From NCBI GenBank assembly GCA_963727775.1, contig CAVSHB010000001.1:1510199-1574198 (forward strand): a stretch of 64,000 nucleotides of DNA, in the 5' to 3' direction. The stretch is from an uncultured Nitrospiraceae bacterium (GTDB lineage: Bacteria > Nitrospirota > Thermodesulfovibrionia > Thermodesulfovibrionales > SM23-35). Of the stretch, positions 51,001-57,000 are shown one piece after another (the first letter of the stretch is position 1; every line of letters begins with the position of its first letter). Position numbers: made by a program.

Positions 51001-54000
51001 GTTACCGCTTCATGTCCTCCAATAACCTCGCCAAGATAATTGTCCAGCGAATTGAGAATATCCGCCGCTTTAGCATGATGGCTTGTGGTCATTTCTTTAA
51101 CTTCTTTGGGGTGACATTTTGAACAGTCATTTGGGGTTACGAGAATTGCTATTGTGAACCCGTTATGTTCAATTGCATCGGCGTCAGTCTTTTCCGCTTT
51201 ATGACATGAATAACAATCGATACCCTTTTGTGCATGTTTACTGATTCTCCATTCCCGCACAAAAGCCGGGGACAATGCTTCGTGACAACCGATGCATGCT
51301 TGCCCTTGACTTGACACTTTGACATTCTCATTGGCTTCCTCTCCTGATGAGGTACAAATAAATATATTCATAGTAAAGAACATTACTGCAGCTGTTATCA
51401 AAAAATGTCTTTTCATAAAACCTCCTTTTAGCTGCATATTTTTAACTAAACTGAAAATAAGCAATGCTATATTTCTGTGATGAACATGCTGCAATAACTG
51501 ACAGAGATAATATTAATAGCAGTTTCATTTTATATTTGACTCTAAATATCATGCTGATATAATTTGGAGAGGGATAGTGGGAATCGAACCCACGAATAAT
51601 CCTGTGAGGACATTTCGCTGGTTTTGCAGACCAGGCGGGGCCCAGCCCCGTTATCCCTCGTGTTTATTGTTATATAGAGCTGATGAATAAGTAAAATAGA
51701 TTTTATATATACTTATATAACCTGGCATAGATTTATTGAAATGTCTATATTTCCGCATCGGATCTAAAAATTATTCCTGCGACTATGAAAAGTGGAGTTA
51801 AAAGCAGATTTCTGAGGTTCTCACTATTTAGATAAATTCTTTTTATTTAAGATAGCTTTGTATAATCTCTTCAGCCTTTTTCAGAGCAAACTCATCTAAG
51901 AATCGTTTGATGGTATTCTCATCGAAAGAAACACTATCATCCATTTCCCTGTAATTCTTACTTAAAACACAGGCAAGCTGCTGCTCTCCTTCATCCCATT
52001 CCGAACCGATGATTGACTTAATCTCCATGCCTGATTTTATGGAGCGAAGGGGGAGTAAAAGCTCTATGTTAAACCTGTTCGTAAAACTCTGATAGGCATC
52101 CAGAGCCACTCCTATCTGATTGATCTTAATTCTTCCGTCGTGTGATTCCCTCTCTCCTCCTATGACTATATTGATTTGTAATTTTTCGGCCAAAGGGATA
52201 CGAATAGCGTGCAGATAGAGATGACAGCCGATGCAATGGGAGGAAAAACCATATTTATGAAACAAATGTGTGGCATATCTTCCGCAAAGGGTCCACCAGA
52301 ATTTCGGAGAACCCAATATAACAGGATCGAAAACTTTAATCCTCTTTTTCTTTAATAAGGTTTTCATGGATTTTATTTTAAGGAGGGGAATATTCCAGTT
52401 ACCATATTCTGTCCCAGTATATGCCAGGGTAGGAATGATAGCCTGAATCGCTCGTATATCACATGCCCGGATAACCGCTGCTATGCTGTCCCGCCCTGCT
52501 ATTTCTGCTATGGCAACATGCTGTGTTTCCCTGATTTGTTTCACAGTCGCTTCCGGCAGCATCCATTCAGGGAATTCAGAGATAAGATCAGGTTTACCGG
52601 CTAATAGTGATAGGAGTCTTGCGCTTAGGTCTTTCATACGATCAATGGTTTATAATTCCCGGGATAGTAAGGCTGATCAACCGTGGTATCCATAAGTCCC
52701 TGCATCTTCGCCATGTCAAGAAAATTAAGGATCATATGCATCAATTCCTTTCCTCTCATCATACTGAGGGCCCCTTTTGCACAGGCTATTTCATTAAAAT
52801 AGCCGACTTCGTCTCTTCTTACATATTTACCAACCAAGGTGAGAGGCACAGTCTCTCCGGTGTGTATCATCGTGCCGGAACTTGCTGTTGAATGGTCTGC
52901 CGTAATAACAAGCAGAACTTCTCTGTCTTTTATAATCTCATTCACGGCAACGGACATCGCCCTGTCAATCGCCTCAATCACATCTTTCTTATACCATGGA
53001 TTCTTGGTGTGTCCCGCCTCGTCGGGCATCTTTGTATGGACATGGATGAAGTCATAATCACCCGCATCTTTAGCGATATATAGGCGTTGTTTCAGGTCCT
53101 TTTCAATATTTCCCGTATCGCTGACCTTCCTTACGTCCATCCCGAGTTCATCACAGAGGCCGTGGTAAATGGCTCCGGAGGAGATTGAAAGTCCCCTCAA
53201 ACCCCATCTGTCCCTGAAAGACATCAGCGGTCTTTTCTTGCCGGCCCTTTGCGTCACAACTGCGTTTACAGCCGGTAGATTTCGGGATATGCGCTCGCTG
53301 TTAATCCTATGGCCGGCGAGTCTTTGATAACCCCAAATAAGGTATTTGTTTAAAATCTCAGCGGTCTTCCCGGAGATGAAAGATACTTCTTTATGCTGAA
53401 TGGGAACGATCTCCATGAGCGGCTTGCCTTCGTAGATCGGATCCGAATCGGTTATTTTGTCGCTCACGTCTCCGCTCAGGACAAGAAACCCATCGAGGCC
53501 TTTTGATGGTATCAAGCGAATATTGATTCCATCTGTTTCGAAGGACTCTATCGATGACATCAGTTCCCTGGCTTCATCAGATGAAATATCCGGCCGGCCC
53601 CATTTCAGAACAAGATTATTATTCCTTTGCTCAACACAGCACAGATGGCATAAGACGGCTACATCATTATCATCAAAGGACAGACCCTTTCCCTTTGCTT
53701 CGATGTAGCCCCTTCCCGGGAATTCGTCTATTTCATACCCAAAGATGATGAAGTGGGCCGTCTCGCTCGACATGGGAACACCCTGCATCAACGTGTGATA
53801 CAAACCGTTCATGCCTGTCGATGCAAGGCAATCCAGATGAGGTGTATAGGCGGCATAGAGAGGCGTCTTGCCATCGAAGCAATCCTGCCCCCTATCTCCA
53901 AGACCATCCAAAATCACTAAGATACATCGCATGTCTATTTATAGCACAGCAAACACTGATTATCCTAATCAATGTTGCCTATAGATCAATCTTTTGCGAT

Positions 54001-57000
54001 TGATTTTCTCTATTTGACAACAGTAAAGGCGGGTAATAATATAAAATTATGATTCTTGACATGCACATTCACACTTCTTTTTCCCCATGCAGCGTGCTTA
54101 ATATTCCTACACTTTTAAAAAGAGCCCGGAAAGTCGGGTTGGATGGAATTTGCATTACTGATCATGACACAATGGCCTCACAAACCATCTTCAACAATAT
54201 AGATAATAACCAGGGAATCTGTATCATTATCGGCATGGAATATACAACAGTAAAAGGCGATTTCCTGGTTTTTGGCCCGAATGAATCCATACCAAAAGGA
54301 ATGGATGCAGAACGTCTTATCAAGTGGGTTAATAAAGAAGGCGGAGTGGTCATCCCTGCTCACCCATTCAGGAAAAGCAGGCCTACGGATTTGGGGGTCC
54401 TGTCATCAGTGAAAATCGTCGAAGTATTAAACGGCAGAAACCAACCATCTGAGAACGAATCATGTAAAATTTGGCTTGCTCAATATGGCAACGGTACAAG
54501 GCAGATTGGAGGCAGCGATGCCCATACCCCTGAAGAGATAGGTCGAATGGCTACTATATTCAATAAGAATATTTATGATGTCGAAGATTTTATCAATGAG
54601 CTTCATACCGGGAATTACACCCCAAGACAATTTCATTCCTTTTAAAGTAGCTAAATTACCATTCGTGTAAAGCCTTTCTTATATCTCCAACTCTTTTTGT
54701 AATTCCATTTGAATCGAGATATTCGAGAAACTGAATGGCATACTTACCTGTAGTGGGAAAGGTATCTTTGAACTCTCTCATTGTCATTTCAGATTTTTCA
54801 CTGAAAAAGTTCTTCAGGTTCTCAATTGCTTTCCTGTAAACAGAAGCAGTTATATGGAGAGAATTATTAATTTTTACAAGACTCCCTTCCTTTACCATGA
54901 GTTTCAGCATATCCGACATATATTTCTGCTCCACTTCGAGAATCTTATATAATTCTTCAAAGCTTAACGGCCGGGTTCCTGCGTTGTCCAACAGTTCAAG
55001 AATCTTGCTTCGGATTGTCTCATCCTTCCCTGAGAAAGTCGCTCGAAATTGCACAAGCCTCACAATTTCTTTTTCCATAACAATTTCTTTTGATGACGAG
55101 AGCAGACAAGCAAAAACTTTGGGGTCAAGATTCAGTCGGGTCCGCAGTTCCTCCTTCTGAATGCCGTGCTTTAAGGGATTTTTTTCATGGAAATTCGCAA
55201 TCTCATGTTGCACGAGCTTACCGAAGGAATTTATATTCACCCTATGAAGCAGGATATCATCATACTGCCGAAGAATACCTTTTTCTATCAGCTCCCTTAT
55301 TGAATGGTTGATGGTTGTGACTTCTTCTTTAATCCAGCTCTGAATGAGAGAAAACTTAATACCCTGTATGCCGGCCCTTTTCACTTTCAACGCTATTTTG
55401 TCGGACAAAGTTCCGGAATCAAACAGTATTAAATCATCTAAACTTTTCTTATGACTCATCTTGTATGACGAAGGATCCAGCACTTCTCCGCCGCCAATAG
55501 TATCTAAAGGAGAAAATCTTCGTATAATGTATCTATCTCCGGACATTGCTATAACGGGATACTGGAGTCTGAACTGGCAGTAGCAATTCTCGCCGGCCCT
55601 CAGCTCATCTCTCCCGTAAAGGATAATTCTTGCTGTATTCTCGGACGTGCCTATATGGAAGTGAACAATGTCCCTGTTTTTCAGTATTTGAGAGTGTTTC
55701 AATAATTCCACTTTTGCGTCTATCATCGTGGCCGGTATAAACTCTGAGCGATTGACAACTGCATCTCCTCTTTGTAAGGCTTCTTTAACAACTCCCTGGA
55801 GATTGATCGCCACGCGTTGTCCCGCATACGCCGTCTGTATAGGTTTCCCATGGCTGTGGAGACCTCGTACTTTACTCCTTATTCCGCACGGAAGAATTTC
55901 AACATCGTCATCAACGGATATGCAACCGGATACGGCTGTGCCTGTTACGACAGTTCCAAACCCTTTTAAGGTAAACACCCTATCGATAGGGAGCCGGAAA
56001 AGACCTCCTGCCGGTTTCGATCCAACATTAATGGCTTTTTCTTTAATCTTTTCTTTTAAAAGCTCAATGTTGAACATTGATTTCGATGAGACACGGATAA
56101 TTTCAGCACCTTCAAGAAAGGTTCCTTTGACAAAGGTCCTTACATCGTCTTCAACGAGATCGAGCCACTCCTGCTCTACAAGGTCAACTTTTGTAATGGC
56201 GATGATACCCGATTTAATCTTGAGGAGATCGCAGATATAAAGGTGTTCACAGCTTTGAGGCATAATCGATTCGTCTGCGGCAATAACAAAGAGAACAAGG
56301 TCTATGCCGCCTGCGCCGGCAAGCATATTCCTTATTAGCCTCTCATGTCCCGGGACATCAACGATCCCGACCGTAAGTCCGTCGGAATATTTAAGATCGG
56401 CGAAACCGAGATCAATGGTAATCCCGCGCTCTTTTTCTTCCTTAAGCCTGTCGGGGTCTATTCCTGTCAGCGCCTTGACAAGTGCGCTTTTACCGTGATC
56501 AATATGTCCGGCGGTACCGAGAATTATATTTTGCATAGCAAATTGTAAATTGAGATAGTATAATTATGGAGAGGGGTAGTGGGAATCGAACCCACCAATA
56601 ATCCTGTGAGGACATTTCGCTGGTTTTGCAGACCAGGCGGGGCCCAGCCCCGTTACCCCTCGTGTCTATTATCATATAGTTTATATGCATAAGTATAATA
56701 GATATTATCTATATTCATCCTGGTAATTATAGATCCAATTTGAAGCCTTCACGTCATCATTGATATGCACATGCATATTGCACTTTCACTGTCTGATGAT
56801 ATTAAATATCCAGTATGTCTGAATTGACCCCATTGATGAAGCAATATTTCAGCATTAAAGAAAAATACAGAGACGCTATCGTCTTTTTCAGGCTCGGAGA
56901 CTTTTATGAGATGTTCGGGGAAGACGCCGAAAAGGCGTCAAAGATACTTCAGATCGCGCTGACCACAAGAGACAAATCAAAAGAAGACCCTATGCCCATG

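Follow-up and report, generated by a model that had tools for sequence, protein, structure and literature searches.

The window, a 64,000-nt stretch of contig CAVSHB010000001.1 from an uncultured Nitrospiraceae bacterium, encodes a cysteine tRNA with the fold of a tRNA-Sec (tRNA-ReC, or selC*) directly upstream of a second SelB, here called SelB*, in which the SECIS-reading WH4 motif is altered. Coordinates refer to the window, whose position 1 is contig position 1,510,199. From the sequence features described below, we lean towards a role of tRNA-ReC and SelB* as a backup that would insert Cys for Sec under selenium limitation with relaxed SECIS reading, an interpretation to which we give a little more credence than doubt.

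The tRNA-ReC gene at 56567..56661 (minus strand) is the first gene of the selB* unit, and a second copy at 51565..51659 (minus strand) lies after a PP-loop gene, at a site orthologous to that of the tRNA in relatives. Both are 95-nt tRNA-Cys(GCA) genes with an 8-bp acceptor stem, a 6-bp D stem with a 3-nt loop, a 5-bp anticodon stem, a long variable arm, and a 5-bp T stem, giving an 8/5 branch of 13 bp with no bulged A51a; the CCA end of the first is encoded. The GCA anticodon and U73 occur in both, the class being defined by U73 with GCA or UCA. Rfam tRNA-Sec scores were 55.4 and 57.0 bits (gathering threshold, 47) and folding z values −2.8 and −3.6, so that ARAGORN, Rfam, and folding agree with an earlier note on this DNA, which had described two tRNA-Cys of tRNA-Sec-like shape with GCA, U73, and G1:C72. 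We also reconfirmed the ordinary tRNA-Cys and the tRNA-Sec that the note had placed in the same genome (contig C3, positions 309632 and 290654, respectively). tRNA-ReC thus coexists with tRNA-Sec, tRNA-Cys, selA, selB, and two selD genes, where selA denotes an ORF close to the canonical selB that was recognised by this position and not by a family score.

Of the 95 bases, 3 differ between the two copies, and 2 of these make up one compensated acceptor pair. In an alignment of 44 tRNA rows, which was fitted to the model and contains a few tRNA-Sec and remnant rows, 95% of the cells were paired and 18 of the 24 pairs showed two-sided changes. Relatives carry branched variable arms of 50 to 95 nt in tRNAs of up to 168 nt. 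tRNA-ReC and the tRNA-Sec of this genome have T arms of identical sequence, and comparison of the tRNA sequences revealed no feature peculiar to the SelB*-linked copies; SelB* may therefore bind both tRNAs.

The basic selC*-selB* system is already in print. The Nitrospirae type of selC* tRNA-Cys was published by Mukai et al. (2017; PMC5389517, supplement) and shares the tRNA-Sec-like fold, GCA, U73, and G1:C72 with the window tRNAs. Sheet 3 of that supplement holds two metagenomic rows near-identical to the window tRNA-ReC, with a host possessing a full selABCD set, and one row equals, by eye, the tRNA of the related genome G018 letter for letter. The earlier note had considered that the supplement might list Nitrospirae contigs with a selB nearby; figures S11, S13, and S15 may show one on a Nitrospirae-type contig. 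As far as the main text and supplement tables of PMC5389517 go, a second selB is reported only in Syntrophobacterales and Desulfobacterales, together with 8/4 tRNAs, whereas that of the window goes with an 8/5 tRNA. The proposal of the note that tRNA-ReC is paired with a separate SelB paralogue in a lineage beyond the two deltaproteobacterial orders mentioned in that text is supported. The position of a dedicated selB copy directly downstream of selC* is common to the window lineage (14/14) and the deltaproteobacterial selC*-selB*(-cysS*) systems (PMC5389517; excerpts of PMC7609411). The 8/4 tRNAs of the latter have the bulged A51a. In Desulfobacterales, cysS* lacks the anticodon-binding domain and the tRNA has A1:U72 and UCA, in contrast to G1:C72, GCA, and no adjacent cysS* in the window. 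Annotation of the selB*/tRNA-ReC locus revealed no cysS, and a short CysRS-like gene was rejected as a dedicated synthetase, as it is unlinked and does not co-occur with SelB* (7/13 SelB* genomes versus 16/44 others).

The selB* gene (54656..56536, minus strand) starts 30 nt after tRNA-ReC and is intact. Its 626-aa product scored 350 bits with TIGR00475 (cut-off, 242) and is 66.8% identical to the SelB at C3:368287, which bears out the second selB of the earlier note. As in canonical bacterial SelB, D1 to D3 are followed by four winged helices, with a pocket of F/Y, D, R, and R. The GTPase motifs, including switch and P-loop, and the amino-acid pocket residues F45, D185, R186, and R241 are conserved, the pocket in all 14 linked SelBs. 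An alignment-based structure model, used in place of a discarded single-sequence model (pLDDT 34), matched 5lzb with a TM score of 0.83. Residues specific to the lineage are R288, K359, and K364 (13/14 each) and H362 (14/14), the latter serving as spacer marker. SelB* evolves faster in all domains, and its dN/dS of about 0.08 to 0.17 in three close pairs indicates purifying selection.

In Moorella SelB structures, residues of the WH4 motif reportedly contact the loop G of the SECIS; binding of the SECIS by WHD3 and WHD4 of SelB is described in the literature. The canonical motif, FRD..L.[ST][ST]RKY..P, was not matched by SelB* of the window (FKDTFPTTGKYAIQ), the altered residues being K590, F593, P594, G597, and Q602. 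The core of WH4 was intact in 58/58 canonical SelBs but in only 3 of the 12 SelB* proteins having a WH4, and those three have an altered wing. Among 120 database proteins, 26 carried the SelB* spacer marker, with a broken core in 20 and an altered wing in the other 6, whereas the core was intact in 90 of the remaining 94. No other part of canonical SelB is as conserved as this motif (pairwise 87%, versus 54% in SelB*). The WH4 of SelB* is still folded in the predicted model (pLDDT about 88), its dN/dS is about 0.1 in two pairs, and its basic residues are retained. The delta-type lineage likewise has an altered WH4 motif. Judged by their sequences, both SelB* lineages changed the SECIS-reading WH4, and the window's lineage keeps the amino-acid pocket, which is altered in some delta-type rows.

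The change in both lineages would also fit a SelB* that acts independently of SECIS and delivers Cys-tRNA-ReC to ordinary UGC/UGU codons, leakily to any UGA, as a second, orthogonal cysteine channel. The GCA anticodon is cognate to UGC/UGU, the linked copy G005b naturally ends at 524 aa, before WH4, and according to a preprint on engineered SelB-v2 (bioRxiv 10.1101/2025.02.04.636165), SelB can function without WH3-4 and SECIS contact. SelB-v2 is, however, a laboratory deletion combined with an amber-reading tRNA-Sec, as described there, whereas SelB* occurs in nature at full length, bears point changes, and goes with a Cys tRNA. As UGC/UGU are already served by the normal tRNA-Cys with EF-Tu, WH4 is still under purifying selection with its basic residues kept, and location and operator link the unit to selenium and not to cysteine supply, we consider such a channel unlikely.

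tRNA-ReC lies 10 to 56 nt upstream of all 14 linked SelBs and of none of 18 canonical loci checked; the earlier note had reported an ARAGORN tRNA for only part of the linked SelBs, as ARAGORN misses some. In a tree with outgroups, the linked SelBs formed one clade (100/99) nested within the family's canonical SelBs. SelB* is therefore a family-level duplicate, contrary to the earlier note, in which the linked copies were a grade outside the canonical clade and an old, retained paralogue. The branching order of SelB* disagrees with that of the canonical SelBs, an indication of lateral spread. The full-length tree, to which 19 non-family rows had been added, rejected a grouping of the linked SelBs with delta-type SelB* in one clade (p-AU 1e-67); a quick tree of D1 to D3 only, in which a long outgroup row was drawn into the SelB* group, did not reject it (p 0.78). 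Delta-type SelB* in these trees means family rows beside 8/4 tRNAs plus database homologues, not the sequences of Mukai 2017 themselves, and the trees were computed without the broken delta-type SelB* of G015, the partial rows G044, G047, and G051, and several single-copy genomes. Delta-type cassettes occur in four family genomes (G013, G015, G046, and G058), and their SelB* is 33% identical to that of the window, no closer than to canonical SelBs. The separate clades imply a second origin, and the sequences point to SelB* having arisen independently in the family and then spread laterally.

SelB* is patchy, occurring in 13 of 57 family genomes. Two full-length SelB matches of at least 60% identity were present in 11 of the 56 other family genomes, or 12 counting one cut by a contig end, close to the 12 of the earlier note. 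The double matches in G273, G178, G140, and G051 were rejected as SelB*, being canonical-like or split genes. Outside the family, none of 130 SelB-positive genomes had two full-length SelBs. The patchiness, the faster evolution, and the truncated copy could be those of a dosage duplicate of selB that drifts on a mobile selenium island with no new specificity. We hold this to be quite unlikely, because lineage-specific residues are fixed, the loss is concentrated on the most conserved motif of canonical SelB, the unrelated delta-type lineage changed in parallel, and the adjacency to tRNA-ReC is strict.

A perfect ATAG-N7-CTAT palindrome at 56698..56712, 51 nt before tRNA-ReC, is the putative operator of a selenium-metabolism LysR regulator; the second tRNA copy has the palindrome with one mismatch at the same distance (51696..51710). 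Its position is fixed in relatives: among 47 tRNA upstream regions it was exact in 15, in 12 of them at −50/−51, compared to a mean of 0.2 and a maximum of 3 in shuffles. A generic sigma-70 promoter scan gave matches at chance level. The island holds six palindrome sites (0.5 expected), one of them before selD, and a selenium-metabolism gene cluster (28400..42500; family names taken from homologues) with further sites at 28417, 37767, 39623, and 39936. This cluster contains a UGA-containing selD (36071-37126, minus strand), yedF (40057-40671), a cysteine desulfurase/Sec-lyase-like gene (40690-41859), and rhodanese, double-cubane reductase plus activator, and HAD-like genes. Three NF040786 LysR proteins are encoded in the genome. 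According to excerpts of PMC5322559 and PMC11097638, the archaeal orthologue HrsM serves to repress Cys-isoform genes at adequate selenium. From motif shape and this analogy we infer a LysR protein as the probable regulator, and the sign of control.

The duplicate tRNA-ReC retains its own promoter site and the compensated pair. The earlier note had considered it a possible by-product of IS-mediated rearrangement, which we reject: the repeat comprises only the tRNA and 57 nt of promoter, and the IS element (inverted repeats, 48655-50373) does not bound it but ends 1.2 kb away. Between the tRNA copies lie genes for a PHP-domain metallohydrolase (54049..54645, plus strand), an apgM-like cofactor-independent phosphoglycerate mutase family protein (52634..53932, minus strand; TIGR00306, 336 bits, cut-off 320), and a 264-aa protein (51843..52637, minus strand), which has no Pfam or NCBIfam match and resembles QueC/ThiI (PP-loop) proteins in language-model features alone. 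This triad recurs near the tRNA in about 10 family loci, is missing from many tRNA loci, and occurs also in Acidaminobacter loci, in which a pattern search found no such tRNA. It was rejected as a tRNA-modifying or Cys-making unit and is left as island cargo.

For the tRNA-ReC class, excerpts on other species describe charging by CysRS and recoding of UGA plus SECIS as Cys via SelB, not EF-Tu, with a GCA or UCA anticodon; the Desulfotomaculum nigrificans member is the same kind of GCA tRNA-Cys with tRNA-Sec structure (Vargas-Rodriguez et al. 2018, as cited in PMC13582414 and PMC11415595). For the window, we infer charging, binding, codon target, and sign of regulation. In the backup we propose, CysRS would charge tRNA-ReC by virtue of GCA, U73, and G1:C72, and the 13-bp branch would avoid EF-Tu and fit SelB. 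A single canonical SelB would carry tRNA-ReC in most of the order, and the co-transcribed duplicate would have replaced it in this family, with GTPase and pocket kept, substitutions fixed in both D3 and the N-C spacer on the presumed tRNA-facing side, and a rewritten but intact WH4 whose reading of the SECIS loop would be weaker or less specific. The LysR site common to selD and yedF would switch on the unit at selenium shortage, and Cys would be placed where the many selenoproteins of this genome have UGA-SECIS codons, with Sec taking precedence whenever Sec-tRNA is present. Against this backup, G34 of the anticodon mismatches UGA, so that a looser hold on the SECIS would be expected to hinder UGA decoding instead of helping it. 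The possible binding of both tRNAs by SelB* and the truncated copy G005b also weigh against it. Moreover, most tRNA-ReC-bearing members of the order have only one SelB, and no paralogue was seen in 14 of the 27 family genomes bearing tRNA-ReC, which are draft genomes; tRNA-ReC thus does not need a paralogue, and canonical SelB evidently suffices in most of these genomes, which counts against a backup needing SelB*.

The weakened SECIS reading and the intact tRNA-binding half resemble a sink, and sequestration of tRNA by excess SelB has been discussed (PMC8124441). SelB* might accordingly be a buffer that binds Cys-tRNA-ReC, withholds it (or SelB* itself) from competition with SelB and Sec-tRNA at SECIS sites, and tunes misincorporation with no delivery. 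This is decidedly unlikely, considering the conserved switch and P-loop motifs, the cost of making tRNA and inhibitor from one promoter, and the dedicated CysRS* of delta-type systems (PMC5389517), which suggests productive use. Some WH4 changes are common within subclades (FK, FPT, and TKR), as might be expected if SelB* read a different mRNA element and served its own UGA or UGY codons. The replacements nevertheless vary widely between members, and all 19 in-frame UGA sites examined, which were hand-picked by eye and assessed with a lax hairpin test, carry an ordinary hairpin with a loop G, which also fits the backup. A DksA-like zinc-finger gene in which UGA stands at the position of a zinc ligand was rejected as a SelB* target, as it is a singleton among 57 genomes and likely a damaged copy; a motif-only UGA scan was too noisy to use. 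We regard a different element as very improbable.

In a bolder form of the proposal, which we regard as doubtful, SelB* would be a natural orthogonal elongation factor that evolved from SelB on two occasions, with base reading of the SECIS lost convergently, and that, switched on by selenium starvation, delivers Cys-tRNA without a canonical SECIS, such that UGA would change conditionally from Sec to Cys under a transcription factor, with a tRNA class tolerating the long branched arms. The literature searched held no text on Nitrospirota selB*, WH4 changes in SelB*, a second origin of SelB*, the palindrome at −51, or branched variable arms; the 2018 paper of Vargas-Rodriguez and the supplementary figures of Mukai 2017 lay outside this search and may cover part.

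A 2026 paper (PMC13582414) calls the split of work between tRNA-Sec and tRNA-ReC unclear. The locus described here allows a clean comparison, with two SelBs in one genome that are 67% identical, a short list of differing positions, and a predicted regulator site. For genetic-code expansion, a SelB whose SECIS reading is naturally relaxed would provide a useful chassis. That SelB* arose a second time independently, and again with a change in this domain, suggests that the repurposing of a SelB follows a general rule.

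The positions that the earlier note gave for two tRNA genes and a second selB gene were borne out in the window. Both tRNA-ReC copies, 95-nt cysteine tRNAs at 51565-51659 and 56567-56661 (minus strand), fold with an 8-bp acceptor and a 5-bp T stem into the 13-bp branch of bacterial tRNA-Sec, for which their Rfam scores are 55.4 and 57.0 bits, and carry a GCA anticodon, U73 and G1:C72. The same genome (G000) also has genes for a standard tRNA-Cys and for a tRNA-Sec, as well as a canonical selB, whose product is 66.8% identical to SelB* (54656-56536, minus strand). The sequence upstream of the copy at 51565 is that of the relatives' locus in which selB* comes after the tRNA; in the window, selB* stands behind the other copy, and the repeat shared by the two spans just the tRNA and its promoter. 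A compensated pair and a retained palindrome site suggest that both copies are live. An insertion sequence with 23-nt inverted repeats (48655-50373) cuts into a multiheme cytochrome c gene (50349-51494) at its 3′ end, and further IS copies lie at 59596-60969 and 62058-63350; from its ORFs, a large transglutaminase-like/Ig-fold gene (17737-25800) reads as interrupted by several IS insertions. The PHP, apgM-like and PP-loop-like triad at 51843-54645 recurs next to tRNA-ReC in the family and is also clustered in Acidaminobacter.

The predicted structure of SelB* matches SelB along its length (pLDDT 87.5; TM 0.83 to 5lzb). All 14 linked SelBs, those encoded behind tRNA-ReC, retain the GTPase motifs and, by alignment, the equivalents of the SelB pocket residues described in PMC4605307 (Aquifex Phe45, Asp185 and Arg241; E. 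coli Arg181). Near-fixed changes of SelB* are found in domain D3 (R288) and in the N-C spacer (K359, H362, K364). The spacer of SelB is in contact with the tRNA. D3 touches the T and extra arms of the tRNA in the model of PMC4605307. The strongest change concerns WH4, the winged helix with the conserved SECIS motif: identity over residues 583-621 is 87% in the family's canonical SelBs, 71% in other families and 54% in SelB*. The WH4 core motif is intact in 58/58 canonical rows and 3/12 SelB* proteins, and these three have an altered wing instead. In a separate set of 120 proteins, many of them close kin, WH4 deviates in 26/26 with the spacer marker and does not deviate in 90 of the 94 without it. 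The S/T-R-K-Y helix start of WH4 is also absent from the deltaproteobacterial-type (delta-type) SelB* and its homologues. As dN/dS of the SelB* WH4 is ~0.1 in two close pairs and 0.3 in a third, this domain is not in free decay.

In a 75-row tree including 16 outgroup SelBs of other families, the 14 linked SelBs form a single clade (support 100/99) inside the family's canonical SelBs. Adding 19 more distant database rows gave the same placement, with delta-type SelB* as a separate clade; a joint clade of the two was rejected on this wider tree (p-AU 1e-67), and delta-type SelB* shows the same identity, 33%, to the SelBs of the linked, canonical and outgroup sets. Since a quick tree of D1-D3 only did not reject the joint clade, the separate origin leans on full length and wider sampling. 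G022 and G068, relatives of one genus, have almost identical canonical SelBs and SelB* proteins in different subclades, which may reflect lateral spread or hidden paralogy.

A search model made from seven tRNAs matched 26/57 family genomes (E < 1e-15), the long variants being additional, and, at E up to 1e-11, 72/136 genomes sampled from the order's other families, where a few matches may instead be tRNA-Sec. The inspected matches in other families are GCA tRNAs, usually next to a selenium-metabolism LysR gene, yedF or a double-cubane reductase gene. SelB is present in 130 of these 136 genomes, and none has two full-length SelBs. In a 301-genome phylum sample with four candidates scored per genome, two SelB matches occurred outside the family in one genome only, both canonical-like. 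Within the family there are 14 second SelBs in 13/57 genomes, every one 10-56 nt behind tRNA-ReC, a position that tRNA-ReC occupied ahead of canonical selB in none of 18 loci checked. In four family genomes the tRNA is of the delta-type 8/4 kind and goes with a distantly related SelB*, either in place of or alongside the 8/5 type. Deltaproteobacterial-type 8/4 selC*-selB* cassettes were seen within Nitrospirota genomes at L042, L043, L068 and L069; the G058 cassette has UCA and A1:U72, with no cysS* in the 250 nt remaining on the contig, and the selB* of G015 is broken.

Variants of tRNA-ReC of 104-168 nt, which exceed every row of the Mukai 2017 table (up to ~97 nt), lie at L041:4947-5114(-), L088:6544-6701, L059:6175-6327(-), L052:8392-8532(-) and L214-L226; where ARAGORN was run on the locus, it missed them. 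Their variable arm is branched into a basal stem, a long hairpin and a small hairpin with compensated pairs, and most retain GCA, U73 and CCA. The 168-nt variant is directly followed by selB*. Signs of degeneration are seen in two or three copies (L059, L086, L087). Remnants retaining the 3′ half of tRNA-ReC (L052:1511-1630, L088:5001-5115) are as expected if the gene is an integration site. A 405-aa CysRS-like protein lacking the anticodon-binding domain and altered in the zinc-ligand region (L155:1513-2730, contig C2 of G000) occurs in 23/57 family genomes.

An ATAG-N7-CTAT palindrome starts 50-51 nt upstream of tRNA-ReC and adjoins a TTGACA-like hexamer. It is exact in 15/47 tRNA upstream regions versus 0.2 in shuffles, related genomes not being independent, and also precedes 9/13 additional parsed long-arm tRNAs. 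In G000 it lies ahead of both tRNA-ReC copies, of selD on contig C4 and of operons of the selenium island in the window, which has six sites versus 0.5 expected; it is absent before canonical selB and tRNA-Sec. G000 encodes three LysR_Sec_metab proteins, whose archaeal orthologue HrsM is described as repressing Cys-isoform genes under adequate selenium (PMC5322559, PMC11097638). We infer that these proteins bind the palindrome, which would open under selenium shortage.

In G000, UGA plausibly encodes selenocysteine at 18 or more sites, which include those of FdhA, SelD, DsbC-like, ArsM-, ArsS- and RnfB-like proteins; some have NCBIfam support. Every one has a hairpin and a loop G, and no second element class was found among them. 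One DksA/TraR-like gene (L170:1049-1477; G000:C1:214348), in which UGA stands at the position of a zinc-finger Cys, is a singleton in the family.

The text and supplement tables of Mukai 2017 (PMC5389517) name selC* in Nitrospirae and Thermodesulfovibrio, list two metagenomic tRNAs near-identical to those of the window and report selB* in two deltaproteobacterial orders only. According to 2018 work as cited in PMC13582414 and PMC11415595, tRNAs of this kind, whether their anticodon is GCA or UCA, recode UGA plus SECIS to Cys through SelB and do not bind EF-Tu. The tRNA type and the concept of a dedicated SelB are thus already known, and part of what looks new may already be in the 2018 paper or the figures of Mukai 2017; the tRNA-ReC/SelB* of the window is real and a variant of this known system. 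The main weakness of a SECIS-relaxed factor is that the G34 anticodon should require SECIS tethering for UGA. The best reading, which we favor by a modest degree, is that tRNA-ReC and SelB* are a backup inserting Cys for Sec under selenium limitation, with a dedicated, SECIS-relaxed factor.
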